Assembly: GCA_019704295.1 (NCBI GenBank)
Contig: AP024596.1
Location: 1,472,001-1,536,000, forward strand
Direction of reading: 5' to 3'
DNA from: Sulfolobales archaeon HS-7
GTDB taxonomy: Archaea; Thermoproteota; Thermoprotei_A; Sulfolobales; Sulfolobaceae
DNA: 64,000 nt
In this document: piece after piece, positions 924-23,657 of the stretch
How positions within the stretch are numbered: position 1 is the stretch's first letter
Layout: each line of letters begins with the position of its first letter
Program-made: the position numbers and the translations under genes
Notes under the pieces: model-generated
What the model was told of the DNA's origin: nothing
What the model saw: only the letters and a program-made list of their open reading frames with translations
The model's database searches: none

Positions 924-1156
924 TTTTTATAGAATATTTTACTTTTTATTAAATTATATACTTATACTTCTTTGTTAATCCTGGATCCCGCATCTCTTAA
1001 GAAAAAGAGCTGGCTCTCGAGATATTGGCGAAAAACCTTACACTTTATCAATCCTAATATACCCGTATTAGGAACTCAATTTCAGAGTCCTTCGATTTAG
1101 GTAACACTTTGTTAATCATATTTAAGGTTTATCAATCACTTTCGCAATACAATTTT

Positions 1157-1392
1157 ATGGAAAGTAAGATTGAGAAACACAAGAAACCCTTCACAATTAC
1201 GCAGATCGTTTTGATGGTAATGGCTAAAAGTCTTGGAAGTGCTGTAGCTTAGAATATCTCACTGAGAAGACGTTGGTAGATAAAGACGAGTTGTTGGTCT
1301 ATCTGTCCAGGACGGCGCAGAGGGGTAGAGAGGAAGTGGCATAAGGAGAGAGCAGGAAAAGATAGGATGTATTGTCTGAAGTATAAGGAGGG
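1157..1392 (+). pseudogene. plrA: PlrA (plasmid ORF80-type DNA-binding protein) pseudogene with two frameshifts
   Basis: Manual translation across frames gives MESKIEKHKKPFTITQIVLMVMAKS / CCSLEYLTEKTLVDKDELLVYLSRTAQRG / RKWHKERAGKDRMYCLKYKE, matching the Sulfolobales plasmid PlrA pattern. Confidence 0.8.
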
Positions 1393-1672
1393 AGATAATA
1401 TAAGTAAACCCGATGATAAATTCCTAGAGCATGCCAAAGCTTTTTCGTAAGTAGCCTACTCTGATTTAGAAGCAAGTAAACTTCTCTGGGAAGGCAATTA
1501 TTAAGTCCAACCATATTTATCTACAATCAACTGAGAAGATGTTCAGATTATTCAGAATTATGCATTAGTATTTTTTGTAGAATTTTTCAGAACAATTACA
1601 GAAGAACTACTAGGCTTCAGTAATATTAGAGTTAATAACTTAAAGATGCATCTCCAGTCGTTAAAAAGGGAT

Positions 1673-4600
1673 TCAAAAAGGGGAATCCTTTTTCTGTCTA
1701 ACCTCGTCCAGTGTTAATATACCCTTGTCGATCAGAACATTAACGTGATCCCAAGCATGTGACCTAACGTATTCACTCGGTGATTCAAGAAGTGAGAGAA
1801 AATGGTCCTTTTTCTGTCTAACCTCGTCCAGTGTTAATATACCCTTGTCGATCAGAACATTAACGTGATCCCAAGCACGTGACCTAACGTATTCACTCGG
1901 TGATTCAAGAAGTGAGAGAAAATGGTCCTTTTTCTGTCTAACCTCGTCCAGTGTTAATATACCCTTGTCGATCAGAACATTAACGTGATCCCAAGCACGT
2001 GACCTAACGTATTCACTCGGTGATTCAAGAAGTGAGAGAAATGCCTTGGAATCCTCCCTCGTTAATATACCCTTGTCGATCAGAACATTAACAATACTCC
2101 AAGCACGTGACCTAACGTATTCACTCGGTGATTCAAGAAGTGAGAGAAAATGGTCCTTTTTCTGTCTAACCTCGTCCAGTGTTAATATACCCTTGTCGAT
2201 CAGAACATTAACAATACTCCAAACAGTGATGCAAACATACTCGTCAGTTGCGCTCAGCATCCTTAAGATTAGATTATTAAAATGTGATTTGTATGGAGAT
2301 TCACGTACAGATGTAAGCCGTGATTTAAAGTCTGGTTTGTTAATCACGCCAGCAATCGGCCTCATCATGACCTCAAAGGTCTGAATTACATCGGCTTTAT
2401 CAGAATATCTTTCCAAAAGATATGCTATTACTTCCAATATCTTGACCTTAAAATCTTCGTCACTGAAATATGGGACCACGGAAATAGCGTCGAAAAGGAA
2501 AGTCGAAACGTTATTTGGCCTGCTGAAATAACGTTGGTGATTTTTAATATAACTTTCTGAGTCTTTATAAATTTGGAGAATTAACCTCCCGTAACTATTA
2601 CACACTTCTTTTAGCTCTTCCCTAATTCTATTAAGGTATTTATCAAATTCCTCAAAATCAAAGTTCGTTTTTCCCAGCTTCGTTATTAAATTTTCGTGCC
2701 CTAATTCATCCTCTAATTTATCTGGGATTTCCTCGCCGTCTAAATACCCTACCAAAATATTGTATCCTTCCTTCACCGAGCCGTGGATAGGAGATAGTAT
2801 TCCTCGGTGGTCCATTCGGAAAAACGGGAAGAAAGCGTTAACTTCCCCATTCTCCACTCTTACTACTCCTACCGTACCCTCCTGTACCGTGTCCCTTTGT
2901 AAGGAGATTAGGGAATCCAGAGCACGGTAGAGTAGGGAACTTTCCGTATTAAGACCAACTAAGCTCAACCTCTCCTTGTCAACAGCAGCGATCGGTACTC
3001 CTTTGCTTTCCAACATAGCCCCCAGTAGGGCAAGAATTAGGAGGAATTCCTTCTTACCACTTTCTGTTTCTAGGGGAATGTCTCCATTTTTAAAGTAAAA
3101 CTGTTGAATCTTCCTAAAGGCATATGTTTTAGGGTTCCGGTCTATTTCGTCTAGGTCTTCTTCGCTTATGTTCTCCTTTCCCTCTAGAAAGTACCTTAAT
3201 ACTACAGGCAGTCTGGCCCTCTTCACTATTTTTCGCTTCAACTCATCACTGATTTTTATGTTCTCAGATAGCATACTCTCCAGAATCTTCATTAATTCGT
3301 CTTCATTCGTGTTAATGCGGATTTCCTTGAACAGATTCCCCCGCTCCCTCAGTTTTCTCCATAAATCCCCCTTATGCAGATCTGCGAATCCCATCTCAGC
3401 TTTCTCCACAACGGATCTCCACATCGTCTCTTCCGTTGTGATGAGAATCGGACATTCCGCGTTGCCCTCTATAAACGCTTCATGTAGGACATTGGTTAAA
3501 TGTTCCTGCAACATGTTCGTGGTAACTCTACCGTCATCTAAAATTAAAAGGCACTTCCCATCCCTGGAGGGAGGATATTTAAATGTCCTTGGATCTTGGA
3601 TCGAATAAACCACAAATTTTCCTCCAGTTTCTCCTTCCGCTCTCTCCATCAACTTTTTCACGACGAGATAGGAGAACCAGCTCTTTCCCACTCCTGAAGG
3701 ACCTATTACGGCATAAAATAGGGGATTTCCCCTAAAGGTGGAGAGTTCTGATAAAGTATGTTTTCTCCAGCTGAGGATCTCATTGGCCAGTTCATTGACT
3801 TTCTCTTGCTTAATCTCAACTAGAGTTTCTTCGTTTACACCATAATATTCCTTAATTGAGTCCTTATCCTCTGGTTTTAACCCGGCTTGCTTAATTTGTC
3901 CCTCCTTGAGCCTGTTTATTTCCTCTTCATGCTTTTTTATTTCCTCTTCATGCCTGTTTATTATTTCTTCGAGTTTATCTATTCTTTCCTTTATCTTCTT
4001 GACCTCGCTCTCAAGCTCTGGCACTTTCCTTATGACTTCGTTCAGCTTCTTTATGTAATCCTCGGTAAAGATCTGCTTAAGTCTAGACAAAAACTCATCG
4101 TACCCCCCTCCCGGTCCCACAGGGGATAGCCAGCTTGAGAGGAAGCTGTAGCAGTCCCCGGGGTTGAGGCCGTATTTCTCGTCCAGTTTCTCGCACAGGA
4201 TCTCCCTCTTCTCCACCGGATATTCGTTCCAGGCCTTGTGTAGCTTTACGTACTTTCCAAGACCCGCGTCTTTCCTCTCCTCGTAAAAGCTAAGTATTAA
4301 TGACACTCCGAAGAGTATTACTGATGCTGGCAATAAAAATTCCGAGATAAGGCGAGACAGAGTAGGTAACAAAGGCCCCTTAAGGTATTCCAGGGTTTCG
4401 CCTAAAGCTCCCATCCCTTCGGAAAGGCTTAAACCAAAGGTCTCAAGCAGAAGCTCTTCCCTATGTCTCTCAAGTTCTTTCAATTTTTCAAGGATCTCTT
4501 CGCTTTTGCCAGCATGCTCTTCGATTACTCTCTCCAGAAGAGGTGGTATCAACAACCCATTACCCTCTAGCGGGGAGCCACCAAAGCTGGCCAGCTCAAG

Positions 4601-5992
4601 GAGGTGACACCTCTTTCTCCTTAGCTCTTCCTCGCTGAGGCCGGTTTCTCCCCTACGCTTGTCGGCTATCTTCTTTAAAAAGTACTCGAAAAGCCCTTCG
4701 GCGTCCTCTTTAGTAATCTTCGACTCGACAAGTACACTGCCTTCAGGGATCCAGCTTCTCTTTTCTTCTTTACCCTTTTTTCCAAAGACACGATTGAGTA
4801 GATCTTTTCCAAAGATAGGATTATGTAGATCCCCCCTCTTTTCACCCTTTAGGAACCGGATCTGGTAGTTGCTCCCCTCTATTAAGACCTTCCCGTGTAA
4901 TCTGTCCTTTATCTTCTCTGCGTAACCTTCGTCCATAGAGTAGTAGGGAAGTTCAACGTAGGAGTATTCTTCTGGAAGGATTCCCTTCTTCCTCGCCCTA
5001 AGGATCGCCATGGTCTTACCGGAATAACGATGACCAAAAAGGACCACGGGCACTCCTCTCTCCTTAGCTTTTTCCAAAGCTTCCTTCAGACTCGCGTCTA
5101 CGCTCAGCTCTACTCCGTAATCCGCGTAGTTTGGAAGGTCCTTAAATCCCTTACTTTCCCTCAAATAGACCATCAGCTCCTTGAGGAACTCTGAGGAAGT
5201 CTCCGGAATTGTTACCGCTTCCTCGATGTTCTTCTCTCCTCCAGGATGCACATCAAATGTGGGGACGTCCCCCAAGGCTTTCTTTACCTCTTCGTAAACA
5301 ACCTGCAGATCCTTATCTCTGAAGCTGTGCCCCACGACCAACAGGGGTACTCCGATGATGTGTCCCTTCATGCTGATGTAGATGGCTTCTCTATCTTCTT
5401 CAAATGACTTCAAGTCGTCCTGGGTGAGGACAATTTGTTTACTTTTTTCTTTGTCCTCTTCGTATATGTCGCCGTGAACCTTGTAAATCCTGATGTAGGC
5501 GTCAGTAGGTTGAGAGAAGTCGTCTTTGCTCTTTACCACGGTGTATCTCGTCGAGCCTTCATCTAATTTATCTTTAAGGGCGTCCTCAAGCTCCCGATCG
5601 AAGTTCGTTGTTATGATGTTGACTGTCAAGTGTTTCCCCTCTCTCTTCCAAGACTCTACCAAGGCCCTCAAGATTCTGGCCAGTAAAGAATAAGGATTCC
5701 TGAGGGAATCTCTTTTTAACCCTTCTTTCCTCTTCTTATCGAATATCTCCCTTATCTTTTTAATAATGTCTTCCCTCTTCACTCCCTTGTCGATTATATC
5801 CTTTACGACCGATTCAAGGTCTCCTGTCTGGACGTCGAATTCCTGGGCAAGGGCGGAGGCGAGCTCGTAGCTGAGAGGATAACCTAGCTCATAAGACACT
5901 TCCGCCCCTATAATTATTGTAGCTCCTCTTTCAGTGAGTAGATCAGCAAATTGCCTTACCTCAAGGGATACCACATCATACATATTTCGCAT
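1673..5992 (-). CDS. SIR2-domain + two P-loop NTPase (STAND-like) + coiled-coil + C-terminal HEAT-like repeat protein; putative NLR/Avs-like antiviral protein
   Basis: SIR2 motifs IIIGAEVS, TTNFD, KVHGD, VGHSFRD. Walker A GHRYSGKT and GPSGVGKS, Walker B LLILDDG, sensor PILITT. Also a hydrophobic segment, a heptad coiled coil and C-terminal 40-aa helical repeats. Confidence 0.85.
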   Translation of the reverse strand: MRNMYDVVSLEVRQFADLLTERGATIIIGAEVSYELGYPLSYELASALAQEFDVQTGDLESVVKDIIDKGVKREDIIKKIREIFDKKRKEGLKRDSLRNPYSLLARILRALVESWKREGKHLTVNIITTNFDRELEDALKDKLDEGSTRYTVVKSKDDFSQPTDAYIRIYKVHGDIYEEDKEKSKQIVLTQDDLKSFEEDREAIYISMKGHIIGVPLLVVGHSFRDKDLQVVYEEVKKALGDVPTFDVHPGGEKNIEEAVTIPETSSEFLKELMVYLRESKGFKDLPNYADYGVELSVDASLKEALEKAKERGVPVVLFGHRYSGKTMAILRARKKGILPEEYSYVELPYYSMDEGYAEKIKDRLHGKVLIEGSNYQIRFLKGEKRGDLHNPIFGKDLLNRVFGKKGKEEKRSWIPEGSVLVESKITKEDAEGLFEYFLKKIADKRRGETGLSEEELRRKRCHLLELASFGGSPLEGNGLLIPPLLERVIEEHAGKSEEILEKLKELERHREELLLETFGLSLSEGMGALGETLEYLKGPLLPTLSRLISEFLLPASVILFGVSLILSFYEERKDAGLGKYVKLHKAWNEYPVEKREILCEKLDEKYGLNPGDCYSFLSSWLSPVGPGGGYDEFLSRLKQIFTEDYIKKLNEVIRKVPELESEVKKIKERIDKLEEIINRHEEEIKKHEEEINRLKEGQIKQAGLKPEDKDSIKEYYGVNEETLVEIKQEKVNELANEILSWRKHTLSELSTFRGNPLFYAVIGPSGVGKSWFSYLVVKKLMERAEGETGGKFVVYSIQDPRTFKYPPSRDGKCLLILDDGRVTTNMLQEHLTNVLHEAFIEGNAECPILITTEETMWRSVVEKAEMGFADLHKGDLWRKLRERGNLFKEIRINTNEDELMKILESMLSENIKISDELKRKIVKRARLPVVLRYFLEGKENISEEDLDEIDRNPKTYAFRKIQQFYFKNGDIPLETESGKKEFLLILALLGAMLESKGVPIAAVDKERLSLVGLNTESSLLYRALDSLISLQRDTVQEGTVGVVRVENGEVNAFFPFFRMDHRGILSPIHGSVKEGYNILVGYLDGEEIPDKLEDELGHENLITKLGKTNFDFEEFDKYLNRIREELKEVCNSYGRLILQIYKDSESYIKNHQRYFSRPNNVSTFLFDAISVVPYFSDEDFKVKILEVIAYLLERYSDKADVIQTFEVMMRPIAGVINKPDFKSRLTSVRESPYKSHFNNLILRMLSATDEYVCITVWSIVNVLIDKGILTLDEVRQKKDHFLSLLESPSEYVRSRAWSIVNVLIDKGILTREDSKAFLSLLESPSEYVRSRAWDHVNVLIDKGILTLDEVRQKKDHFLSLLESPSEYVRSRAWDHVNVLIDKGILTLDEVRQKKDHFLSLLESPSEYVRSHAWDHVNVLIDKGILTLDEVRQKKDSPF
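1686..2222 (-). repeat. Intragenic tandem repeat, about 4.6 near-identical units of 120 bp (one of 108 bp), encoding HEAT-like repeats
   Basis: Lines at 1681/1801/1921 are almost identical. Protein unit W(SI/DH)VNVLIDKGILTLDEVRQKKDHFLSLLESPSEYVRS(R/H)A. Confidence 0.95.
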
Positions 5993-8529: not shown

Positions 8530-10704
8530 TCACCAGAGAATCGCTGTTTCGTTCTTAAGCCTTCTAAACCCCGTGTCCTTATCGTAATACTTTTCCAGGT
8601 CCTCCCTTTTCAGCAAGTACCAACCCAACTCCTCATCCAGTTCCAGGGGAGGTTCATCCCATGCCCTGACCACGTATTGTTCAGCCAACCCCCTCTGCAC
8701 CTTTAGCAAGGCCCTTCTCTGATACCCCCTCTGCTTAAGCACCTCCTTCAGCTCCTTCAGAACTTTCTCCGCCTCCTCATCAACGTTTACGTAAACTGAG
8801 TATTTGGGTTCCTCCTTAATTACCTTTAGCTCCACCTCCCCGTAGTTCAAATCCGTTATCTCCTTCTCTAGGTTCTCCCATTCCTTGGTACGAAAGTCGC
8901 TATACCTTCTCCTAATCTCCTCGTAAAACCTTCCCAAAATTGACGAAATGTCCCTTTCATTGAACCCCTTTTCCCAACCCTTCAGTGTGGACAGAGTTAC
9001 CTCTTCGCTCAGTTTACCGTATATAAGAGAGAAATCGGTGGAATTGACGTTCTCCCTCTTTACCCTAGTTAGGATGACCTCTCCTGTCTCTCCGTAATTC
9101 CTGTTAATCCTTCCAGCCGTTTGTACCACGGCATCAATAGGCCCTAAGTCCCTGTAACCTCTTCTGAAGTCAATGTCCACACCTGCTTCAACCATTTGAG
9201 TTGTCACCAGTATTACCCTTTCCCCCTTCTCAATCTTACTCTTGATGCGCTCTATCCGCCTCCACCTCTCTAAGGGCACTATCCTAGTGGAGAGGAAGTA
9301 AGGTTTCTCTCCCCTGTCTCTGAGGACTTTGAAAACTCTTTCCGCCGATTCAATTGTGTTAAGCTCTATCATAGTCGAAGTTCTCACGTCAATTCCCGCC
9401 GCAAGTTCCTCCGGAGTCTCCACCTGATCGAATTTCCTAAACCTGACAACGTACCTGTCTGGAACGGTCGTAACAGGTCTTTCCGGTTCTACGCTAAGAG
9501 GAGGTGTAGCCGTCATCATGAGGATCTCAACGTTAAGGTGTTTCGTCATTTCCTCCAACCCCTTCTTGATGATACCCAGGTATTCCAGGGGAAGTGCCTG
9601 GACCTCGTCTAGGATTAGGAAAGAGTTTGAGAGGTTGTGTAACCTTTTCAAGTTGGAGTTCTTGGGGGAGAAAAGGGTTGCCAGTAGGGCCTCAAAGGTA
9701 GTGACAATGAAGGGAGAATCCCAGCTCTCCGCCAACATGAGTTGCGACTCTAAGTCCCTTGTCTCATCTGCCCCTTTCTTCTGGGTGAAAGCCAGGTGAT
9801 GGAACTTCATGACGTTCTCCTCACTCAGAATGTCGGATAGAACCCTCCAGTTCTGCTCTATTATGCTAATGAAGGGTAGGGAGTACACTACCCTCCTTCT
9901 CCCTCCCTTCAGAGCCACTAGGGAACCCGCTAATGTCTTCCCGCTACCCGTAGGGGCAACCAGCGTTATGAAGGGAGACTCTTGAACGTAGTTTAAAGCC
10001 CAATTCCTAAGTTCCTCTCTCATTCCTCTAATTTGAGGGTTTGGTGAGGTAAGGCTTCTTATGTGCCTTTCAAGGATTTTGTAATCAGGTAGCGGTAGAC
10101 CTCTCTCCTCCACGTTACCTGCACTGTGTTTATCCGCATCGATCAGTGATGAAAAGATGAGTAGGCCCTCCAGATACTCCTTCCACCCCTTATCCCTAAG
10201 AACAGCATTCGTTACTTTCCTATATCCTTGCCTAAGGAGTTCCTCAAGCGAGGGGAGATCTGCGGGAACCCACTCAACTTCCTCTCTGATAGTAGACCAC
10301 TTGGACTTGATATCCTGATATTGTTTTACTAAACAAGTTTGGGGGTTTCCGATGTTATCCCTGTTATTTCTAAGTACATCGCGGTAATCCCTCAGACCCC
10401 TTAGGTAACCGTGATGGGAGTACACGGAAATCGCTGACAGCACTGAGTATAGGTCGTCCTTCACAGTGTAAAGGGTAATTATTGATGAAAAGAGGGCGTG
10501 ATCTGAACAGTCGACCCTCCTCTGATCAAGCAGGTGCTCCTGAAAAAAGCGGGAGTACTTTCCTATATCGTGAAGTCCGCCTGCCATAAAGGCGAATTCC
10601 GCCAGATCCTCTCTACCCGCATCAGTTATTCTTCTCCTTGCTCCCTCCCCCACTTCCCTCAAGTGTACTCTAATTTCCTTATCAGGATGACTGTAAAACT
10701 TCAC
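8530..10704 (-). CDS. cas3: CRISPR-associated HD nuclease/helicase Cas3
   Basis: LHDIGK, HHG and LIDAD (HD domain); APTGSGKT, ILDEVQ, MTAT and QTAGRINR (SF2 helicase). Confidence 0.96.
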   Translation of the reverse strand: MKFYSHPDKEIRVHLREVGEGARRRITDAGREDLAEFAFMAGGLHDIGKYSRFFQEHLLDQRRVDCSDHALFSSIITLYTVKDDLYSVLSAISVYSHHGYLRGLRDYRDVLRNNRDNIGNPQTCLVKQYQDIKSKWSTIREEVEWVPADLPSLEELLRQGYRKVTNAVLRDKGWKEYLEGLLIFSSLIDADKHSAGNVEERGLPLPDYKILERHIRSLTSPNPQIRGMREELRNWALNYVQESPFITLVAPTGSGKTLAGSLVALKGGRRRVVYSLPFISIIEQNWRVLSDILSEENVMKFHHLAFTQKKGADETRDLESQLMLAESWDSPFIVTTFEALLATLFSPKNSNLKRLHNLSNSFLILDEVQALPLEYLGIIKKGLEEMTKHLNVEILMMTATPPLSVEPERPVTTVPDRYVVRFRKFDQVETPEELAAGIDVRTSTMIELNTIESAERVFKVLRDRGEKPYFLSTRIVPLERWRRIERIKSKIEKGERVILVTTQMVEAGVDIDFRRGYRDLGPIDAVVQTAGRINRNYGETGEVILTRVKRENVNSTDFSLIYGKLSEEVTLSTLKGWEKGFNERDISSILGRFYEEIRRRYSDFRTKEWENLEKEITDLNYGEVELKVIKEEPKYSVYVNVDEEAEKVLKELKEVLKQRGYQRRALLKVQRGLAEQYVVRAWDEPPLELDEELGWYLLKREDLEKYYDKDTGFRRLKNETAILW

Positions 10705-11560
10705 ATAATGAACAGGAAGGGAGAGGAAAAAAACTTTTCGTGAACGCTCGTGGTCAGAAGGTTAAGATCACTTCGTTGCCCCTTAGTTACCTATCTTAAA
10801 TGCGTTTGAGGTATTCCCTCAACTTAAAACCATTCAGCGCGTGGAAGAAAAACGTGGTAAGGCCCTGGTAATGATGAAATTCCCGTTCATGACAAAGGAT
10901 GAGACAAAAACCGATTGGAAATTCATTACAACTGTAGGTTACGCATATTACGTAAAAGCGCTTACTTCGCCTTCCTCAATCTCTCATAATTAGGGTTAAC
11001 GAGTAACAAGGGTACTTTACGAACTTGATCTGACCAGGGTGAAAAATCCATTGCCGCATAGGTGGGTCTACCCAGGGGTTTACTTGTTACATTCCTGACG
11101 TTCGAGAACTGCGGAGTACAGGGCCGCGTAAATTAGCAAAACCTCATGCAGATTTGTTGAGGTAATTGAAGATCCTTGTCCATTTTACTAAACCCATCAG
11201 AATACCTTGAAAAACTAATCACGACTTGCTTAATTAACACTAGGCAAACTAAAGAGTATTTAAATTATCCTAAAATTATGATAGTATATTATCTAACTTC
11301 AATAATAAAAGGAAACCCATAAAGGGCTTTCCGTAATCTTTAAGGGGAAAGTTAAAAATTAACCCTAGAGTTCAGCTCATACCAAGGCCTAATGGTTTAA
11401 CCAGGAAGTACAAAGGAGTTCAATTTCTTGTAACCTTCCGCGTGTTTACTGAGTTAAGATGCTCTCATCTCTTTCAGATTGACGTCTAAGCCTGGTTCTA
11501 GTGTTATTACTCCCTATTGATCTCTTTGAAGACATTACGCGTTAACTGGAATAGTGATCT

Positions 11561-11818
11561 TCATAAAACGTTGGACGGCCCTTTCTCCTCTCCAAGAATT
11601 TCCCTCTTCAGCGTTCTTTTAGATTCCGTTAAGTAAATTATAACTGAATCCCCTTCCCTCATTATTTGACGTAATTCCTCTTTTAGGGAGTAGAGCTTAC
11701 CCTCGGATATTTCCCCTTCAAATACCGACCTTTGAACCCAGGCAAGGTATTTCCTACAGATGTTAAGCGCTTTGTTTACCCGACTTTCATCAAAATCGTA
11801 AACCAGTACTACGTACAC
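11561..11818 (-). CDS. cas2: CRISPR-associated Cas2
   Basis: YVVLVYDFDESRVNK...WVQRSVFEG, 85 aa. Confidence 0.96.
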   Translation of the reverse strand: MYVVLVYDFDESRVNKALNICRKYLAWVQRSVFEGEISEGKLYSLKEELRQIMREGDSVIIYLTESKRTLKREILGEEKGPSNVL

Positions 11819-12201: not shown

Positions 12202-12426
12202 CTAAATGTTGATTTCCTCAAGCCTCATCATGCTTACGCAGTATAATCTTATCCTTTTCCCATTTGGGGTCCTAAGCCCTCTTCTCGTTATGTGATCCTC
12301 TTTAGCTAGTCTACTTAGTACTACCTTAGCATTGTTTTCATCTATATTTACATCTCTACAAATTTCGTCAAGCGTCTCACAGTTGTTTCGTGCTAAGTAA
12401 AATGGTATAATTCTCCACATGTTCAT
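12202..12426 (-). CDS. plrA: PlrA-like small wHTH plasmid DNA-binding protein
   Basis: CETLDEICRDVNIDENNAKVVLSRLAKEDHITRR...RIRLYCV. Likely start MNMWR at 12426. Upstream direct repeat GTAGGATTACAAA at 12444 and 12508. Confidence 0.7.
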   Translation of the reverse strand: MNMWRIIPFYLARNNCETLDEICRDVNIDENNAKVVLSRLAKEDHITRRGLRTPNGKRIRLYCVSMMRLEEINI

Positions 12427-12650
12427 ATCATAATTTAGGCTAGGTAGGATTACAAAAATGTTACCCTTCATGGAGACGTGGAAAACCGCTTTCCCAAACC
12501 CTTTTTAGTAGGATTACAAATTTGTAACACTCTCACTATTAACGCAAGAGTCTGCCCAAACGAGAGAAAAATCAGGGATCCGGGCAGGATTAATTATCTA
12601 TCTTCTAGCGATTATACTGGAGATCATAAAATTTTCTAAAAGATGAAATT

Positions 12651-13724
12651 TTACTCTGAAACTTCAACGACTCTCCTTCTTAGAAGTGTCTCAGCTACTT
12701 TATCAGTTATTATTTTAATTAAATCTTCAACACGTGACTTATCTACTATAAATTTCTTGTTCTGCTCATCAAATTCTACTTTTAACTCCCTTTGAGTTTT
12801 ATTTTCATATTCATTCTTTACTTTTTCTATAATCTTAGGGTCGGTATTTAGATTTTGTTCGATTTCGGTTATGCCATTTTTTACAACTTTGTTTAGATTC
12901 CTTAATTGTAATGGGTCTACCTCTCTCAAACCTCTTTCGAATGCATCCGCGTTATCAACAATATTTATTACCTTTTTAAAGTTTGGCTCCTTCTTCAAGT
13001 TATTTATATAATAATCAACAAGCATTTTCTTAAAATTACTATCCTTTTGAAACTTCGATAGCGTAAAAATGATTATCTTACCTTTATAATATGTGAACAG
13101 AATATTCTTTTCTAGAATTATATAATCCTTAATATTTACTGCTTCGTAGGTGTCTTTAGACTTAAAAAAGTGTAAAATGCTAAGGTTTTTTAAAATAATA
13201 TTTCTATCAAATTTACTAAATATTAATATGTCATCCCCGCCTTCATCACTAAGTTTGAATGCTACATATTTAGTATTCTTCGTGTCGTTCTCCGGGCTAA
13301 ACTTTTCGTCAGTAGGAGGGTTCGCATTCTTGATCATTTGAATTAATTTCATAATATCACTCTCAGTATTATAGGATCCACTCTGTTGAGAAGTATTTGC
13401 TTGAATTTGAGAAGCAGCTTGAATTTGGGGGTCAGAAGATAAAATATCGAGATCTATATAGCATGGTTTTTTAGACTCAAAGTCAGCACATTCATTAATA
13501 ATATTCTCTTTTTCTAGTTTTGTAGATATTTTTTCTCTTATGTAAATAAAATTATTCCTACTTCCTCTCTCAATATTTATATACTTAGCTTCATATGTTA
13601 CACCTTTATCACTTACTCCTCCTTTAGTTCTTACAAAGAAGTATATTTCCTTGAGTTTATCTTCTAAATCAATTTTATTAGTAGCCTCGACTAAATCTTT
13701 TCCAGAGTAGCCCTCTTTGTTCAT
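12651..13724 (-). CDS. kwaB: Kiwa anti-phage system protein KwaB-like (DUF4868-like)
   Basis: 357 aa, soluble, with ILIFSKFDRNIILK...DTYE...LEKNILFTYYKGKIIIF and a C-terminal EDLIKIITDKVAETLL resembling KwaB. Starts 7 nt after the KwaA-like gene. Confidence 0.7.
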   Translation of the reverse strand: MNKEGYSGKDLVEATNKIDLEDKLKEIYFFVRTKGGVSDKGVTYEAKYINIERGSRNNFIYIREKISTKLEKENIINECADFESKKPCYIDLDILSSDPQIQAASQIQANTSQQSGSYNTESDIMKLIQMIKNANPPTDEKFSPENDTKNTKYVAFKLSDEGGDDILIFSKFDRNIILKNLSILHFFKSKDTYEAVNIKDYIILEKNILFTYYKGKIIIFTLSKFQKDSNFKKMLVDYYINNLKKEPNFKKVINIVDNADAFERGLREVDPLQLRNLNKVVKNGITEIEQNLNTDPKIIEKVKNEYENKTQRELKVEFDEQNKKFIVDKSRVEDLIKIITDKVAETLLRRRVVEVSE

Positions 13725-13731
13725 TAACCTC

Positions 13732-14319
13732 TTATTCTTTATACTTTTTGTCTAAATAAATATTCTGATATAGGCGGAAAACTTCAACTATTTTACCCTC
13801 CTGTACCATCCCCTCATATATAATATAGACCGATCTGTTATGCTCCTGTACCTTCACCTTGTAAACTCTATAACCACTTATGAAAAGAATAGGGTTAAAG
13901 AGGAGCACTTCGCTGTTCTTGAATAATTCATATATAAAAACCATAATTAAGAAAAAGACTACTAGTCCATATATGTTGGCTTGGAATGTAGATATTAGCC
14001 CAAGTACGTAACTCATTATGACATTAGTATAGTTAATACTTAAGTCTTCTACCTCGGTAATGGTATATTTGAAAGATTCATCATTTCTGTTAGAGCTCAA
14101 GAACTTAAAGTAAAGATAGTTAGAAACAACTAACCATAAAATCACTATTAAGTAGATTATTAGAATTAGAATCCATGGAATTTGTAAGCTAAAGTTTTCT
14201 ATTGTAAATCTAAGCGAAGATGTTAGAATATACCTAAAATAATTTATCATAACTGCTATAAATAGTAATGTATACTCGCTTGTAAATAGTGCCAATGAAT
14301 TTAAATCAACCCTAGTCAT
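13732..14319 (-). CDS. kwaA: Kiwa anti-phage system membrane protein KwaA-like
   Basis: 195 aa with about 4 TM segments. ITEVEDLSINYTNVIMSYVLGLIS and LLFNPILFISGYRVYKV match the KwaA-type NP-x5-G(Y/F)(R/K)xY signature. Confidence 0.75.
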   Translation of the reverse strand: MTRVDLNSLALFTSEYTLLFIAVMINYFRYILTSSLRFTIENFSLQIPWILILIIYLIVILWLVVSNYLYFKFLSSNRNDESFKYTITEVEDLSINYTNVIMSYVLGLISTFQANIYGLVVFFLIMVFIYELFKNSEVLLFNPILFISGYRVYKVKVQEHNRSVYIIYEGMVQEGKIVEVFRLYQNIYLDKKYKE

Positions 14320-15765: not shown

Positions 15766-17386
15766 GTTTCAAGCCCTCTTAGGAAAGCTACAAACTGCAA
15801 ATATAGCGAAGTTTGTGGAGTCTGGAAAAATCCTCATAGGAAAGCTACAAACCAGGGGCGTGACCGTTGAACTCCGTAGACTGCGTGTTGTTTCAAGCCC
15901 TCATAGGAAAGCTACAAACGAGCCGAAAAGTATGATCTTCTTTATGGTCTCATTCTGTTTCAAGCCCTCATAGGAAAGCTACAAACAAATAAAGGAGATA
16001 GTCTGTTATGGTTAAAGTCCTAACTGGTTTCAAGCACTCATAGGAAAGCTACAAACGGTTCTATCTTGAACAATTAAGCTATATTCACACTGTTTCAAGC
16101 ACTCATAGGAAAGCTACAAACGGTTCTATCTTGAACAATTAAGCTATATTCACACTGTTTCAAGCCCTCATAGGAAAGCTACAACTAGCCCTTCTTTTGC
16201 CATTTCGCTTAAGTCTTTTTCGTTTCAAGCCCTCATAGGAAAGCTACAAACTTAGCAGGAGTATACGTTGGACATATGGTAGGATGGTGTTTCAAGCCCT
16301 CATAGGAAAGCTACAAACTCGTGCCAAAAGATCTAGAAGTTTTTCTGAATTTGGTTTCAAGCCCTCTTAGGAAAGCTACAAACAATGTAATGCATGTAAT
16401 TACACGACATATGATTATCTAGTTTCAAGCCCTCTTAGGAAAGCTACAAACCTCTAAAGAGTTGGAGGAATAGCGTAATGTGTCCTGTTGGTTTTAAGCC
16501 CTCTTAGGAAAGCTACAAACGTCCAATGCGTACAAGGGACAGGAACCGGCGGCATAGTTTCAAGCCCTCTTAGGAAAGCTACAAACATTTTACGTTTTTT
16601 TCACAAAATGATAGATTAATTGGTTTCAAGCCCTCATAGGAAAGCTACAAACATGTACACTATTGCTCTCGATTACTTAATACAGGAGACGTTTCAAGCC
16701 CTCATAGGAAAGCTACAAACATATGAAAGTGCTATATGTCGGATATCTATTTTTTTGTTTCAAGCCCTCTTAGGAAAGCTACAAACTTTTTGAAATTGTG
16801 GAGAAGGGCGATATTGATATACGTTTCAAGCCCTCTTAGGAAAGCTACAAACCAAATTCTTGTGAAACAGGCAAAAATATCGGTGGAATGTTTCAAGCCC
16901 TCTTAGGAAAGCTACAAACACAACTAATCTTCCACCGCTCTATGTGGAGGACGCTGGTTTCAAGCCCTCTTAGGAAAGCTACAAACACATAGGTGTGATC
17001 ATGCCGTTGCCCGGTCTTGCTAGTTTCAAGCCCTCTTAGGAAAGCTACAAACACATAGGGTGTTACGATCTTTCTGTTTTTGAAGCTGGTTTCAAGCCCT
17101 CTTAGGAAAGCTACAAACTCTTAGAAGCACAGCAGAAGATGTACCAGGAGTACTGTTTCAAGCCCTCTTAGGAAAGCTACAAACTCGGAAGCATAACGCT
17201 ATAGTAACTCTGCCATTCTTCGTTTCAAGCCCTCTTAGGAAAGCTACAAACTCGGTAATTAATATCGGTCCAGTGTCTTTCAGCGTTTTAGTTTCAAGCC
17301 CTCTTAGGAAAGCTACAAACTGATACTAAGGATAAACTAATGATTCAAATTCATAAGTTTCAAGCCCTCTTAGGAAAGCTACAAAC
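15766..17386 (-). CRISPR. CRISPR array: 25 repeats (30 bp, GTTTCAAGCCCTC(T/A)TAGGAAAGCTACAAAC on plus) and 24 spacers of 35-40 nt
   Basis: Counted directly. On minus the repeat ends TTGAAAC. Degenerate repeats cluster at the left end, so the leader is on the right next to cas4. Confidence 0.98.
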
Positions 17387-17680
17387 ACTCATTGTTTTGT
17401 CCTTTCTCATTCATAAATTTTTCGGTATCAAATTCGGCAATCTCGCTCTCCCTAGAGGTTACGTGAGGTTGCCGTCGATAATTTACGTCTAAAAATATAT
17501 GTTCTGTTATACATATTTTGGTATTACGTGGGGTTGCCGAATTCTTGTATGAGATAAAAAATGAATAAAAAGCTAAACAGAATAAATACCTCCGAACAGA
17601 TTTATTACTCTCCTAAGGTAACGTCCAATCCAACTACACTAAGTCAGACCTTAAGGGTTAAGCGAAAATTTCTCATGAGT
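17387..17680 (-). promoter_or_regulatory. CRISPR leader
   Basis: AT-rich non-coding region adjoining the conserved end of the array. Contains TTACGTG(A/G)GGTTGCCG twice (17459, 17524) and an inverted CGGCAATCTC (17435). Right boundary approximate. Confidence 0.7.
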
Positions 17681-17896: not shown

Positions 17897-18403
17897 ATGG
17901 ATATATACCTAGCGCCTGACGTTCCTGTCACAGGTACGCTGATATGGTACCTTCACGTCTGTCCTAGGGAGGTGTGGTTTATGTCGAGGGGGATAACCCC
18001 TTATGCCTACCATAGGAGGTTGGAATATGGTAGAGCCGTACACCAGCGGCATTCTGACACAGTACCCCTATCTCTTGAGGGAATCAAGATCGATAAGTTC
18101 GATAGGGAGAGCAACGTGGTCATAGAGATCAAGTCGATGTCCAGGCATCTGGAGTCGGCTAGAGCCCAGTTGAGCTATTACTTATTCCGCCTAAGCGAAC
18201 TGGGATTGAAGGCTAAAGGTCAAGTCTGGGTACCAGATGAATCGTTAACTGAGGAAATCGACAACTTTAATGAAGATGAGGTGAGGAATGACGTGGAGAA
18301 AGTTAAGGAGATAGTTTCGATGGAAACTCCTCCCCAGCGAAAGTGGATAAAGTTCTGCAAGAAGTGTGCCTACAGGGGTTTGTGCTGGGGTGATGAAAGG
18401 TAA
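17897..18403 (+). CDS. cas4: CRISPR-associated exonuclease Cas4
   Basis: CPREVWF, KID, VIEIK, QLSYYL, and C-terminal CKKCAYRGLC Fe-S ligands. Confidence 0.95.
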   Translation: MDIYLAPDVPVTGTLIWYLHVCPREVWFMSRGITPYAYHRRLEYGRAVHQRHSDTVPLSLEGIKIDKFDRESNVVIEIKSMSRHLESARAQLSYYLFRLSELGLKAKGQVWVPDESLTEEIDNFNEDEVRNDVEKVKEIVSMETPPQRKWIKFCKKCAYRGLCWGDER

Positions 18404-18461
18404 TGGGCTTTAACCTCAAATCTCCACGCTCCAAGGGCGAGACCCTTTGCCTGAACCTGCA

Positions 18462-19397
18462 ATGAAGAGGATTTACATAACGTCGCACGGCACGTTAAAG
18501 CGTAAGTCCAATACCCTGGCCTTCATAACGAAGGAGGGCACGAAGTTCATCCCGATAACTCAGGTTAGGTCAATTTACGCTTTCGGGGAGATCACCGTCA
18601 ATAAGAGAGTTCTCCATTTTCTGAGCAAGTACGGTGTCCCCATCCACTTCTTCTCTAAGAGGTACATAGGTAGCTTCCTACCTAAAAGCACTAATTTGTC
18701 GGGATTCGTACTGATCAAGCAGGTTCAAGCTTACCTCTCCGAAAAGAGGGTGAGGCTTGCCAGGTCTTTCGTGGAGGGTTCGATCAAGAACATGGCTCTA
18801 ATCCTAAGGGAGAACGGGGTGGACAACAGCGGGGTAAGGGGTTTTCTAAACAGGTTAGAAAAGGCCGAGAACGTAAACGAGGTAATGGGAATTGAGGGTT
18901 TGGCAAGGGAGGAGTACTACTCCAAATTGGATAAGGTGTTAGGGGGTTTGCTGGTCAAGAGGACCAGGAGACCTCCGGAGAACTGGGTCAACTCCATAAT
19001 GAGTTTGGGAAATACCATACTTTACATGGAGACACTGGATCAGATTATCCAAACTCAGTTAGATCCGAGGATTGGTTTCCTTCACTCCACTAACCTGAGA
19101 AAGCACAGTCTTAACCTGGACATAGCTGACGTGTTCAAGCCACTTATCGTTGACAGGCTTGTAATTTCCATGGTTAACAGGAAGGAGATTAGGAAGGAAG
19201 ACTTTGAGGCTGAGGGGATTAGGCTTAAGAGGGACGGACTAAGGAAGTTCGTGGCTAAATTCGATGAAAAGCTTGAGACGAGAGTGAAGGTGGGAAGGAG
19301 GAGGTTGTCCTACTCAACCCTGCTTAGGTATGAGGCTTACAAGGTGGAGAGGGACGTGATAGGGGACGCGGTTTACGTTCCGTATACAGCAAGGTAA
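18462..19397 (+). CDS. cas1: CRISPR-associated Cas1, subtype I-B
   Basis: MKRIYITSHGTLKRKSNT, MGIEG, RTRRPPENWVNS, GFLH, LNLDIADVFKP. ATG at 18462 preferred over TTG at 18447. Confidence 0.96.
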   Translation: MKRIYITSHGTLKRKSNTLAFITKEGTKFIPITQVRSIYAFGEITVNKRVLHFLSKYGVPIHFFSKRYIGSFLPKSTNLSGFVLIKQVQAYLSEKRVRLARSFVEGSIKNMALILRENGVDNSGVRGFLNRLEKAENVNEVMGIEGLAREEYYSKLDKVLGGLLVKRTRRPPENWVNSIMSLGNTILYMETLDQIIQTQLDPRIGFLHSTNLRKHSLNLDIADVFKPLIVDRLVISMVNRKEIRKEDFEAEGIRLKRDGLRKFVAKFDEKLETRVKVGRRRLSYSTLLRYEAYKVERDVIGDAVYVPYTAR

Positions 19398-19767
19398 TCC
19401 GGTGCATTAAGACTGCGGGTAGAAAGGTGTTGCTAGGTTTACGTACAGTAGATAGAAAGGTAATCCGGTCGGGATATTCATTTAGAGTGTGAAGCTATTC
19501 GAAACGAATTACTTGATCCCACGAATAAACTCTAAAGATCAACGCCCTTAACGCTCCTACATCCCTATCAGGGGATAACGCTTTTTGGTCTTTAAGTTAG
19601 CTGATTTAAGCGAAAACTTCCAACATATGTGAAACTCTTAAATACCCAAACTTAAGAAGACCTTACCATAATCCCTTCACTTCACTGAAGGATCATACAA
19701 AGATTTAGCAGTATGTGCCGTATCTTTTACTAGGTAAAATCGAGACCCCCATCTTTTTAAATTCAGG

Positions 19768-21516
19768 ATGCAATTTTCGATGATGTTTTCATCTCTTTTA
19801 GAACTTGGGAAAAATCGGGAGGTAACTCAGGAGGTAAAACTTCCAATAAAGAAATTGAAGAACACTAAAGGAGATCTCTGTTTCGTAATCTTCGATAACG
19901 ATAATAAACAGGTTAGGGTGGAGAGATATCGACTGTATAAAGGGGCAGAGGATGACCTTGCCTACATCGGTAATGCAGGACCTCAAAAGGATCAGGTGGA
20001 ATTAACCTCTAACAATATGAAATACGTGATCGGATTTGATAGGAAGGACAAGACTTCTCCTTCAGAAAAGTACTTAAAGAAGAAGTTCGCAATTCAGGTA
20101 GTTGCTGATAAATTGAGGGGAACGGAATTAGGTGAGATCTTAGGAAGGGTTCTAAACTGGTACAAACCAGACCCAATTAAGTATGCAGAGCTTAAACAGT
20201 ACAAAGATTGCGCACTATACTCAGTTAAGGTTATGGATCAAGGGAGGGAATTAACTGTTGCTAAAGATCCTAAGTACAGGGAATTATTATCAAAGGTGGG
20301 AGATACTGTTGATGGAGTGTGCCAGTTGTGCGGTTCACAAGGCGTACTCAAAAACCCGAATTATACTGACGGTTCAATTCTGAAAATCTTCATAACGGAT
20401 AAAAAGGGTTTCCTGCCGAATCATTCTAAAGATAACGTAATTCTCGCTCATGCGATCTGTCCTTCGTGCAAAAGGAGTCTTGAGTTAGGATGTAACTTTG
20501 TCCAGCAGGATCTGGTGGCGACTCTCGGTAAGCTTAACGCCTACATTATACCAGATTTGCCTAAGGAGGGACTCACACAATTCTTAGACCTTTACAAACC
20601 AAGTAAGGAGGGCTTCCTGCTAAAACATCTAGAAGACGTCAGAAAAGCGGAGAGGGATGTACAGGAGACTGCTGAATCCCTTGGAGTTGAGCCTAGGCTA
20701 ACTATAGTTTTCGGGAAAAGGGATAGAGCCAAATTCAGGGTATGGAGGGTAATCCCAGAGGTAAACTATATGAGACTTATCGAAGTGGTAAAGGCATTTG
20801 GCAAGGCCGCTGCCATTATGCAAGTTAAAGAGAATCCCTCATTCAATGATCTCTATTCCATTTTACCGGTAAGGGAAACCAGGAATGGCGTTGATCCCAG
20901 GTATTTTCTGGACTTCATGGAATCCCTCATTCAGGACTATCCCCTAGATCCCGGCCTGGTCTATAGAGTCTTCCTTGAGTCGATAAGGTGTAAGAGATAC
21001 AATACCTGTGAGAACAGCAAAACCAAAAAACATAGTTTAAGGAATATCGTGTTACTTCAGGAAACGTTTATATACTCAATGAAAATATTGGGTATTATGG
21101 GAGAGGAAATTGACAAGCAGGAGGAAGTAAATAAGGACAGAACTCCACAAGGAGTTGCAGATTCACTGGGTCTAAGGGGAGGGAAAAAAGGTCTATACTT
21201 ACTAGGATACCTCACAGCACAGGTAGGAAAGGAACAGGCGAAGAAGGGAGATGAGAAGAAAGCGATATTAGACAAGATAGACTTCGAGGGAATGGATTAC
21301 GATGATGTAATAACTTTCGCTAATAGACTAGTGGAGTCCCTGAGGGACTACAAAGTTTTCCACTACAATGAGGGAGTGCTGGGGGAAGCAATGAGGTTGA
21401 TCGCTGAGGACAGGAATTCCCTAGCGAATCCTCAGGAGAATGTCTTTCTGATCCTGTTAGGATACTCCTACAGTACGAAGCAGATATTCGAGAACAGTAA
21501 ACAAGTAGTTTCCTGA
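19768..21516 (+). CDS. cas8b: Type I-B large subunit Cas8b (Csh1/TM1802-like)
   Basis: CQLCG...FITDKKGF...AICPSC zinc motif, C-terminal GLYLLGYL...Q and FLILLGYSY; upstream of cas7. Confidence 0.88.
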   Translation: MQFSMMFSSLLELGKNREVTQEVKLPIKKLKNTKGDLCFVIFDNDNKQVRVERYRLYKGAEDDLAYIGNAGPQKDQVELTSNNMKYVIGFDRKDKTSPSEKYLKKKFAIQVVADKLRGTELGEILGRVLNWYKPDPIKYAELKQYKDCALYSVKVMDQGRELTVAKDPKYRELLSKVGDTVDGVCQLCGSQGVLKNPNYTDGSILKIFITDKKGFLPNHSKDNVILAHAICPSCKRSLELGCNFVQQDLVATLGKLNAYIIPDLPKEGLTQFLDLYKPSKEGFLLKHLEDVRKAERDVQETAESLGVEPRLTIVFGKRDRAKFRVWRVIPEVNYMRLIEVVKAFGKAAAIMQVKENPSFNDLYSILPVRETRNGVDPRYFLDFMESLIQDYPLDPGLVYRVFLESIRCKRYNTCENSKTKKHSLRNIVLLQETFIYSMKILGIMGEEIDKQEEVNKDRTPQGVADSLGLRGGKKGLYLLGYLTAQVGKEQAKKGDEKKAILDKIDFEGMDYDDVITFANRLVESLRDYKVFHYNEGVLGEAMRLIAEDRNSLANPQENVFLILLGYSYSTKQIFENSKQVVS

Positions 21517-22014
21517 ATTGAACATTAAAAGGTAGGGCTTTTATTTGAAATAACCTTCTTCAAGGTCATCAATTAACATTGCACGATATAATCGTGATAG
21601 GAATAAAGTCTTGGCGTTTAGAGTCGAGGAGGTGGGTAATACTCAATAACTTAATCAGTAAAATTCGTAAAGGGATTTTGTCCCAATCCCCCCGTACCTT
21701 CTGAGCAATGAAATGTATTCATTCCTAAAGGCTCATGACGTTGTAGTTTTTATTGTTATAAAGATAAAGGGGTTTGAATTCACCCATCCATACTATCTTG
21801 AAATGGGTATACCTATTAACTGGTATGCTGAAAATACGCGGAACTCCCGGGAACTTGAGTAATGGAAGACGTGAAGGCCTATTCACAACTCAGTGAATTG
21901 CCTCACTCAGTTACATGCAAAAAACTCTAGTTCTCATACCGCATTAACTAAGGAATTTTCCTAGAGATCTAGGTCTCGTAAAGCTTTATATAGTTTTAGA
22001 TATTATCATAGTGT

Positions 22015-22950
22015 ATGAGTACAAATTCTCCTTCTAAAAACTCCGAAATATTGCTTATTTACGAGGTCAAAATGGCGAACCCGAACGGAGATCCCGACGA
22101 TGAGAATAGACCAAGAATGGATCCGAAAACGAAGACAAACATAGTTACAGACGTGAGGATAAAAAGGTTTTTCAGGGATCTCATCATAGAGAGGGAGGGA
22201 GAGAACGCGATATGGGTGTCTAAAGTTGATGGGAAAATCGTAAACGCTACTAATAAAATAGAGAAATTCCAAACTTATGAAGATATGCTAAAGTCGTGCA
22301 TTGACGCTAGGCTCTTTGGTGCTACTATACCTAAAATGGGACGTAAAAAGGGTGAAGGGAAAGAGAAGGGCGAGTCCATATCGTTTACAGGTCCTCTACA
22401 ACTGACCTGGGGTTACTCGTTGCACAAGGTAGACTTAATGGATACCAGGAGTATAACATCTACATTCTCTTCTGGAAGGAAGGAGGGTTCTGAACGGGAG
22501 GAAGATGAGGAAACAACAGGTAAAGAGTACGGAACAATAGGTAAGGATTACAGGGTGTACTACTCCCTTATAGCGTTTTACGGGGCTTTCAGCTATAGGA
22601 GAGCCTTGAAGACCAACGCGACTAAGGAGGATTTAAGGAAATTCGAAAACTTACTTTGGGATGCTATACTCTCACAATCGGTTACCAGGAGCAAGATAGG
22701 TCATTACCCCCACATCTACATGAGAGTTGAGTGGAACGAACAGGACAAATTCGAGGGAGACCTGAGGAGGTACATAAAGGTTAAGGAGAAAAAGGACGCC
22801 GTAAGATCCCTAGAGGACCTGGAGCTGGACTTCTCTCAACTAATCGCAAAGGTTAGCGGAGCAACGGTATACGGAAGGTGTTCACAGGAGATGAACTTCG
22901 TCTGCGACAAGCTAAAGCAAGTGGCAAAGTTCATCTCAATTCCGTATTAG
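22015..22950 (+). CDS. cas7: Type I-B Cas7 (Csh2)
   Basis: ANPNGDPDDENRPRMD, VTDVRIKR, DARLFGA, FTGPLQ. Confidence 0.95.
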   Translation: MSTNSPSKNSEILLIYEVKMANPNGDPDDENRPRMDPKTKTNIVTDVRIKRFFRDLIIEREGENAIWVSKVDGKIVNATNKIEKFQTYEDMLKSCIDARLFGATIPKMGRKKGEGKEKGESISFTGPLQLTWGYSLHKVDLMDTRSITSTFSSGRKEGSEREEDEETTGKEYGTIGKDYRVYYSLIAFYGAFSYRRALKTNATKEDLRKFENLLWDAILSQSVTRSKIGHYPHIYMRVEWNEQDKFEGDLRRYIKVKEKKDAVRSLEDLELDFSQLIAKVSGATVYGRCSQEMNFVCDKLKQVAKFISIPY

Positions 22951-22958
22951 GTGTTAAC

Positions 22959-23657
22959 GTGAAGGTATTAAGAGCAGTAATTAAGGGTAAGATGGCTCAC
23001 TTTAGAAAGGTTTACAGTAACTCCACCTCCTTGTCTTATTACTTTCCACCTAGAACGACAGTCCTAGGAATTATCGCAGCCGCGCTGGGAAAGGAAAGGG
23101 ACAGCTACTACTCGGAGTTTAATGTCTACAATGTAGGGGTTGCGACCTTAACTCCTCTGAGGAAGTTAGTTACAGCAGAGGACATTCTAGACACGGATGA
23201 ACTTAACACAACCAAGTTTAGAGGATTTAGTAATAGAGTTCCCACGACCAAGGAAATCGTGATAGCGTCAAGGGGCGATTTCCTAAGTTACGAGATTTTC
23301 ATAAATCCCCTTAATCAAGAATTGGAAAAGAGTATGAGGGAGCCTGTCTACCCCCTATCCCTGGGCCCCGCTAACATGTTGGCCTGGGTTGATGAGGTTG
23401 AGGAGGTGGACTGTGACGAGTTGCCGTCAGGAAGCGCAGAGGTGGTAGGGGCTGTTCCGGCGGAGGTAAAGGTCAAGTTCTCCTCCAAAGTTCAGATTTC
23501 CTTAGAGGACACCGTACCCCGTGATTTCTCATCGGGGAGAGTTCCCGGAAGGGCAAGGAACTACTACTTTTCCGTAAACGGTTCGCCTTACGAAATAGAG
23601 TACAATTCTCCCTTGAATGGCGTAATGTGTAATGGGCGTGGAGTAGTATTCCTTTAA
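22959..23657 (+). CDS. cas5: Type I-B Cas5
   Basis: GKMAHFRKVYSNSTSLSYYFPPRTTVLGIIAAALG, YPLSLG. GTG start 9 nt after the cas7 stop. Confidence 0.93.
   Translation: MKVLRAVIKGKMAHFRKVYSNSTSLSYYFPPRTTVLGIIAAALGKERDSYYSEFNVYNVGVATLTPLRKLVTAEDILDTDELNTTKFRGFSNRVPTTKEIVIASRGDFLSYEIFINPLNQELEKSMREPVYPLSLGPANMLAWVDEVEEVDCDELPSGSAEVVGAVPAEVKVKFSSKVQISLEDTVPRDFSSGRVPGRARNYYFSVNGSPYEIEYNSPLNGVMCNGRGVVFL

Follow-up and report, generated by a model that had tools for sequence, protein, structure and literature searches.

Anatomy and possible antiviral role of a two-P-loop SIR2–STAND protein from Sulfolobales archaeon HS-7

The window considered here is a stretch of 64,000 nucleotides from the genome of the hot-spring organism Sulfolobales archaeon HS-7 (contig AP024596.1, positions 1,472,001 to 1,536,000), and close to its start a minus-strand open reading frame (ORF) encodes a protein of 1439 aa, for which the best reading is an antiviral STAND protein resembling Avs5, with an undescribed insert of ~420 aa. 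We think it likely that this protein of STAND/NLR type acts alone as an antiviral receptor and effector and that its two halves, which meet at a coiled coil, are exchangeable. Its domain order is SIR2, P-loop 1, hydrophobic segment, helical domain, coiled coil, nSTAND3-like nucleotide-binding oligomerization domain (NOD, which holds P-loop 2), helical arm, and HEAT repeats. The anatomy, folds, family, mosaicism, and context described below were computed directly. An earlier note on this DNA had reported one ORF with a set of motifs, and each of these was located: GAE at 29–31, TTNFD at 128, VHGD at 172, Walker A1 at 320–327, Walker A2 at 764–771, and Walker B2 at 815–821. The gene comprises the following features (NBD, nucleotide-binding domain):

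1673..5992 (-): whole ORF, 1439 aa, uninterrupted by stops
5144..5992 (-): SIR2 domain, immune type (SIR2_2/STALD), aa 1-283, from Pfam PF13289, PADLOC ThsA, and the family profile
5900..5902 (-): codon 31, GAA (Glu), replacing the second Gly of the GAG NAD-binding loop in alignment to homologues
4448..5143 (-): P-loop 1, aa 284-515, reduced four-stranded AAA+/STAND-like NBD and lid, with Walker A K326, Walker-B-position Glu E372, and lid Pro P483
4283..4423 (-): hydrophobic segment, aa 524-570, candidate membrane-inserting hairpin, from hydropathy and model confidence (pLDDT, predicted local distance difference test)
4094..4279 (-): family-signature helical domain, aa 572-633, with invariant W588 and near-invariant D604 and P611
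3884..4093 (-): coiled coil, aa 634-703, with trimer motif R-h-x-x-h-E at 670-675; recombination hinge of the N- and C-halves
3098..3880 (-): P-loop 2 NBD and helical domain 1, aa 705-965, nSTAND3-like, with Walker A K770, Walker B D819-D820, and GxP-equivalent P929
2738..3097 (-): winged-helix domain, aa 966-1085, a hairpin plus helix in the model, ending in the MHD-equivalent His H1070
2258..2737 (-): helical arm or degenerate repeats, aa 1086-1245, from model and fold search
1673..2257 (-): HEAT-like repeat sensor, aa 1246-1439, five units on 120/108-bp DNA repeats, the last truncated

Domain anatomy

The earlier note expected the second P-loop domain to model as STAND, and it does: for aa 705–1345 the top structural matches in Foldseek are EfAvs5 and the AVAST5 filament, followed by NRC2, NRC1, ZAR1, and Apaf-1 amid AAA+ and HEAT entries. 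The module has the STAND layout, an NBD with Walker A and Walker B, then a helical domain with GxP and a winged helix, and the Walker motifs, the GxP-equivalent Pro, and the MHD-equivalent His are conserved in the alignment (the His in 26 of 29 rows, with a literal MHD in P0023). The nSTAND3 model (PF20720) scores 15.9 bits on the query against a cut-off of 27.2 (E 0.011), and several homologues exceed that cut-off. The C-terminal units of 40, 36, 40, 40, and 26 aa are encoded by DNA that is nearly identical between units; Pfam HEAT matches the query marginally (23.9 bits, cut-off 23.5), and armadillo/HEAT structures are among the fold matches. A stand-alone 141-aa protein (G000:C1:1041775-1042197) also resembles the family HEAT repeats, with E about 5e-7.

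At the other end, SIR2_2 matches with E 3e-18 (66.7 bits, cut-off 24.5) and the PADLOC ThsA model with E 9e-18, and a profile of the family SIR2 domains matches ThsA, KomC, DSR2, and EfAvs5 chains. The catalytic Asn of the TTNxD motif (N130) and the HG-motif His (H173) are present, and the Asn is retained in 17 of 17 aligned SIR2 sequences. TTNFD and VHGD are intact and the loop reads GAE, as previously noted; the alignment adds that Glu at position 31 is found only in HS-7 (Gly in 13 of the 14 homologues having the loop, Ala in one, and Gly at the equivalent position of ThsA and KomC), so that the NADase of this allele is doubtful. In EfAvs5, A41, the Ala adjoining the equivalent position, contacts NAD+ in the model, and its mutation abolished NADase in vitro (PMC11897194). 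By this analogy, an acidic side chain at position 31 could block NAD+ binding, and the NADase of the Glu31 allele may be impaired. A literature search on GAG-loop substitutions, with subscription journals outside its reach, found nothing relevant. The assembly is a hybrid of Illumina and Nanopore data with ~945 Mb of filtered Illumina reads (PMC8459659), which makes a sequencing error in codon 31 unlikely.

The insert of ~420 aa between SIR2 and NOD comprises P-loop 1, the hydrophobic segment, the helical domain, and the coiled coil and, judged by sequence, is the conserved core of an archaeal family. K326 and E372 of P-loop 1 are strongly conserved across the family alignment. Its model has four strands against five in P-loop 2, its Walker B has a single acidic residue, and the Walker A Lys is replaced by Leu in P0015, P0049, P0075, P0081, P0083, and the second module of P0023. 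The double NTPase proposed earlier therefore stands as two P-loops and may not amount to two active ATPases, P-loop 1 being reduced and lacking its Lys in one clade. Sequence searches of the Protein Data Bank (PDB) with either P-loop module returned generic P-loop or coiled-coil matches only, and an ESM Atlas search with the insert gave no usable match, a result that does not show novelty. A recent internal duplication of the P-loop modules is unsupported, as the profile–profile match is confined to the surroundings of Walker A (73% probability, 50 columns).

In the model of the hydrophobic segment, aa 524–553 have low confidence and aa 555–569 form a hydrophobic helix. The most hydrophobic 19-residue window of the query begins at aa 552, with a Kyte–Doolittle (KD) value of 2.15; the segment reaches at least 1.6 over 19 residues in 55 of 67 rows and is usually the most hydrophobic window of the protein. 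The membrane-like stretch described in the earlier note is thus hydrophobic and conserved, but a plain single-pass anchor is unlikely because nucleotide-using domains flank it on both sides. The helical domain behind it (aa 572–633) matched no Pfam family.

The trimer motif R-h-x-x-h-E, also found in some dimers (PMC3653964), is present in 23 of 44 members of the family, where shuffling predicts 2.5, and in none of nine host coiled-coil-like windows. A three-copy model of aa 500–712 scored 0.73 (best control, 0.01), above a mark attained by 20 of 30 solved pairs and one of 23 single chains; its interface is aa 634–703, its runs have at least 32% of contacts in common, and its pLDDT is at least 51. 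With three copies imposed, and coiled coils resembling solved complexes, the model supports self-association and not stoichiometry. Taken together, motif and model make a parallel assembly of three chains at the coiled coil probable.

The gene occurs as a single copy in the genome, a single contig of 2,151,177 bp with 39.6% GC, and the database protein record (P0002, 1436 aa) starts from Met4 of the ORF. A frameshift artefact or mis-assembly fusion is ruled out by full-length homologues of the same domain order (P0003, P0005, and P0055) and by the hybrid assembly. A paralogue in the same genome was rejected, the other matches to the P-loop 2 profile being RFC and unrelated ATPases. PADLOC recognizes the SIR2 part alone (ThsA), the remainder, including matches to LmuB, JetC, and Rad50, being coiled-coil noise, and no NCBIfam model is above its cut-off; a full-length match to a named system, which would have removed the novelty supposed in the earlier note, was found neither in these two collections nor in the PDB.

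An archaeal family with exchangeable halves

A full HMMER scan, clustered at 50% identity, collected 52 related clusters including the query's own. Named members come from Nitrososphaerota (including Conexivisphaera calida; P0046 is Conexivisphaera BBE42418.1), Thermoplasmatales, Thermofilaceae, Caldisphaera, and Nanoarchaeota, and distant forms of 1400–1650 aa occur in the host's own family and phylum. The nearest named relatives of the HS-7 protein are Nitrososphaerota proteins (63% identity), and HS-7 is the only genome with SIR2_2 among 47 searched of its family, which together point to horizontal gain. Related-locus searches of genome, metagenome, and viral contigs found nothing, nor did tblastn against plasmids, all of these searches being of low sensitivity.

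SIR2 is present in 15 clusters, and ~18 start directly at P-loop 1. Some of the latter may be truncated, although several are complete (P0008, P0045, P0046, and L012–L014), and no partner gene is shared among the loci that were read. The SIR2 effector of the earlier note is therefore an immune-type domain with N130 and H173 in place and is not a constant of the family. Sensors are exchanged as well (HEAT, TPR, and others). P0013 and P0016 lack P-loop 2, the N-half being joined straight to C-terminal helical regions, and P0007 and L015 consist of the C-half alone.

The two halves have different histories. P0003, P0004, and P0055 are 53%–67% identical to the query over SIR2, P-loop 1, and the helical domain and at most 22% in P-loop 2, a module in which the query is 34%–37% identical to P0006 and P0007. 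An N-half clade with support 100/99 is rejected on the C-half tree by the approximately unbiased (AU) test (p = 1e-57), and so is a second one (p = 8e-63); these tests used 21 rows, long-branch rows excluded, and the groups were taken from the N-half tree after a quick C-half tree had been viewed. GC content at third codon positions (GC3) is 55% in the N-half of the HS-7 gene and 44% in the C-half. Together these results indicate that the halves recombine at the coiled coil, the N-half being transferred in its entirety to the effector position of various receptors. The number of repeats differs as well, with three and seven units in alleles that are 98.9% identical and up to 15 in the family, part of which short-read collapse could account for.

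Several members have unusual layouts. P0023 (L054:10001-16204; 2067 aa), which lies inside a restriction-modification island, has a doubled module with three intact Walker A motifs and a degenerate fourth. P0024, P0025, and P0045 have in common a C-terminal domain unlike HEAT or TPR, without a Pfam match, which makes a third sensor type. Two proteins of 940–1040 aa from the host's family (L049:5961-9089 and L050:7779-10595) have two P-loops ~255 aa apart and no hydrophobic segment and are a shorter relative of the two-P-loop layout. In the Caldisphaera-type genome G159, the C-half-only gene of L015 (nSTAND3–HEAT) begins with a duplicate of the herA promoter and first ~17 codons (L015:2324-2430 against L015:5973-6079; 107 bp, 92.5% identical). 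The herA gene itself lies 3.6 kb downstream, adjoining nurA, and L016 has the same layout; from its sequence, this looks like the capture of a herA start by a stand-alone receptor half.

Among known systems, the protein most resembles Avs5 (AVAST type 5; EfAvs5, PDB 9JAP, PMC11897194; PaAvs5, bioRxiv 10.1101/2025.07.08.663546), a SIR2–nSTAND3–repeat protein with which it has in common the N-terminal SIR2_2, the nSTAND3-like NOD (its top fold match), the C-terminal helical-repeat sensor, and the single gene. Unlike Avs5, it has the insert, so that SIR2 is not joined directly to a single NOD; it is 1439 rather than about 870 aa long, has HEAT rather than TPR/Sel1/PPR repeats, lacks the sensor-1 Arg, has Glu in the GAG loop, is archaeal, and belongs to a family in which SIR2 is optional. 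A probable trimeric coiled coil, predicted by modeling, stands in place of the direct SIR2–NOD contacts of Avs5 filaments. ThsA (Thoeris), KomC, and DSR2, the best sequence matches of the SIR2 domain, with catalytic Asn and His kept, have the effector domain alone in common with it: neither a SLOG or macro domain nor a partner of the ThsB or KomAB kind was seen, and an NTPase is absent from DSR2. SAMD9 and SAMD9L likewise combine SIR2-like, STAND, and repeat regions (Foldseek E 5e-5 to the C-half), but no SAM, AlbA, or OB domain was found in the HS-7 protein, and the parts of the SAMD9 description that we consulted mention no such insert (PMC5445408). The NOD fold of plant coiled-coil (CC) NLRs (ZAR1, NRC) is similar to the C-half. 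As in these and in fungal HeLo-type NLRs, a hydrophobic helix lies ahead of the NOD in the HS-7 protein and could enter membranes once the protein is activated; the HS-7 hydrophobic module is internal, behind an additional P-loop domain, and is likened to them by analogy, without a sequence or fold match.

The characterized Avs families in the literature consulted have one NTPase domain each. In the literature on archaeal or two-ATPase STAND/Sir2 systems we did not find the present layout, subscription journals and the 589-clade catalogue (PMC12803255) not having been compared, and a search for STAND/NLR-type antiviral proteins of Sulfolobales brought up no publication. The present analysis adds the form that carries SIR2, the exchange of halves with its tree tests, and the coil with a trimer motif.

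Proposed action and its alternatives

We infer a trigger, an oligomer, an output, and an antiviral effect as follows. The C-half (nSTAND3-like NOD, winged helix, and HEAT repeats) would be the receptor, with repeats that bind an invader protein. Binding would free auto-inhibition, and the NOD would oligomerize as in Avs5, to judge by fold and family. The pre-clustered chains would then oligomerize, and the N-half, which fills the effector slot, would deliver the output. P-loop 1 probably serves as a latch that binds nucleotide and not as a motor, because of its four strands, its single acidic Walker B residue, and the loss of Lys in one clade. In members of the family with an intact SIR2, it is rather likely that this domain, once clustered, depletes NAD+ as a further output; for the HS-7 allele with Glu31 this is doubtful. 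The hydrophobic segment might, speculatively, contact the membrane as a hairpin with an output of its own, such as a proton leak in an acidophile. This would explain the existence of SIR2-less members, and membrane action, tentative as it is, is the leading answer for their output. Bolder, and harder to credit as a whole, is the idea of archaea-specific NLR-like receptors, pre-trimerized by the coil, in which the reduced P-loop gates a membrane-inserting hairpin and SIR2 heads and receptor halves are swapped by recombination. If true, it would amount to a membrane-disrupting, resistosome-like mechanism in archaea, with the NADase effector optional.

The alternatives overlap in part with this receptor-effector reading. 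One of them is a sub-case that differs in output: an Avs5-like NADase in which the insert is scaffold only, the hydrophobic segment tethering, the coil pre-clustering, and SIR2 acting as sole effector. Removal of aa 284–705 does leave the Avs5 layout, PaAvs5 localizes to the early infection vesicle (bioRxiv 10.1101/2025.07.08.663546), and the SIR2 Asn is kept throughout the alignment. SIR2-less members would then have to recruit an effector in trans or be sensors without output, yet the clusters that start at P-loop 1 include complete genes and show no common partner, and the HS-7 SIR2 loop is altered; we consider this reading fairly improbable. That P-loop 1 is itself the effector, hydrolyzing or sequestering ATP or other NTPs when clustered, or a second switch able to replace P-loop 2, could be argued from the conservation of K326 and E372 and from P0013 and P0016. 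Its missing strand, its lone acidic Walker B residue, and the Lys-to-Leu replacements make this very unlikely. The HS-7 copy might also be decaying cargo of an integrated plasmid, with the family defensive and this allele crippled or silenced. Its unique Glu31, its truncated last repeat, and the frameshifted plasmid genes adjoining it fit that account, but a 4.3-kb frame stays open beside neighbors with several frameshifts and stops, and all other catalytic motifs are intact, so we judge it unlikely. A non-immune switch in signaling or stress, one that senses, for example, membrane stress or the state of NAD or ATP, or else an addiction-like role in mobile elements, would be in keeping with the 391 of 589 STAND clades not classed as defense-associated (PMC12803255), with the members in housekeeping regions, and with degenerate SIR2 heads that could bind NAD rather than cleave it. 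It is quite unlikely in view of the patchy, non-syntenic distribution, the sensor swapping and repeat-number changes, the immune-type SIR2, the defense-island context, and the lack of any DNA-binding output domain among those found.

Several observations nevertheless weigh against an antiviral receptor-effector. The GAG loop of HS-7 is not intact, Glu31 neighbors the equivalent of an Ala needed for NADase in EfAvs5, and SIR2 motifs deviate also in P0003, P0018, P0049, P0050, and P0055, which agrees with relaxed constraint on an accessory head. Where EfAvs5 has its sensor-1 Arg (TTR), the query has Glu854 and 13 of 29 rows have Arg, and no Avs model of PADLOC 2.0, a library whose Avs5 coverage is unconfirmed, matches the query at E ≤ 1. 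Trimer symmetry is unlike the tetramers and filaments of known Avs proteins. The plasmid genes adjoining the HS-7 gene are decaying, P0045, P0038, and distant crenarchaeal members lie among metabolic and housekeeping genes, and the tally of homologue contexts given below lacks a matched background and favors long contigs.

Through its members with SIR2, a two-P-loop archaeal family that had not been described is connected to a known effector of immunity, and loss of NAD+ offers an easy readout in a strain that is in culture and belongs to an order with viruses and genetic hosts. The active allele may not be that of HS-7; P0004/P0066 and P0005, whose SIR2 motifs are intact, are better test cases. 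Exchangeable halves and expanding repeats would make a natural test of archaeal receptor diversification against viruses that, for the most part, do not have the terminase and portal triggers known from tailed phages.

Genomic context

The HS-7 gene lies between a Cmr operon, situated before the window, and type I-B cas genes, with these neighbors:

974..1641 (+): decayed plasmid segment, frameshifted plrA and broken next gene, 72% identity to NC_012624 and NC_006425
6779..7196 (-): vapB antitoxin gene (Pfam VAPB_antitox, E 2e-20) and short vapC-like ORF (by eye only), upstream of the HS-7 gene
8530..10704 (-): cas3 (type I-B), nearest CRISPR gene, PADLOC Cas3b E 6e-155
12651..14319 (-): Kiwa-like pair, kwaA and a 357-aa partner; PADLOC KwaA E 4e-11, NCBIfam E 5e-15, under its cut-off
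15766..17408 (.): CRISPR array, ~26 repeats, then cas-like genes

The plasmid plrA remnant recognized in the earlier note is borne out: directly downstream of the gene, 974–1641 is 72% identical to Sulfolobus plasmid plrA and the gene following it, with frameshifts and stops. The placement of the gene beside a CRISPR locus was loose, cas3 being 2.5 kb and the array about 10 kb off. Homologues are non-syntenic and mostly in defense or mobile DNA, with restriction-modification, GmrSD, integrase, transposase, or primase neighbors at eight of ten informative loci. The reading as a housekeeping gene is rejected for lack of synteny and because most relatives searched did not yield the gene. At L062:3096-4070, a tubulin/FtsZ-family gene is divergent to P0013 and sits beside GmrSD and IstB.

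Within the window, an ORF of at least 230 aa (3–923) just before the plasmid remnant matched nothing in Pfam, PADLOC, or NCBIfam, nor did the 357-aa gene in the kwaB position. The type I-B cas genes fall into two parts: cas3 and a cas2-like ORF (minus strand, 8530–11818) lie about 6–7 kb from the other cas genes (17897–24376), with a second plrA-like ORF (12202–12471) and the Kiwa-like pair between the parts. The insertion of that pair separates a lone CRISPR repeat (12008) from the main array, in which an identical repeat–spacer unit of 65 nt is duplicated at 16027–16156.

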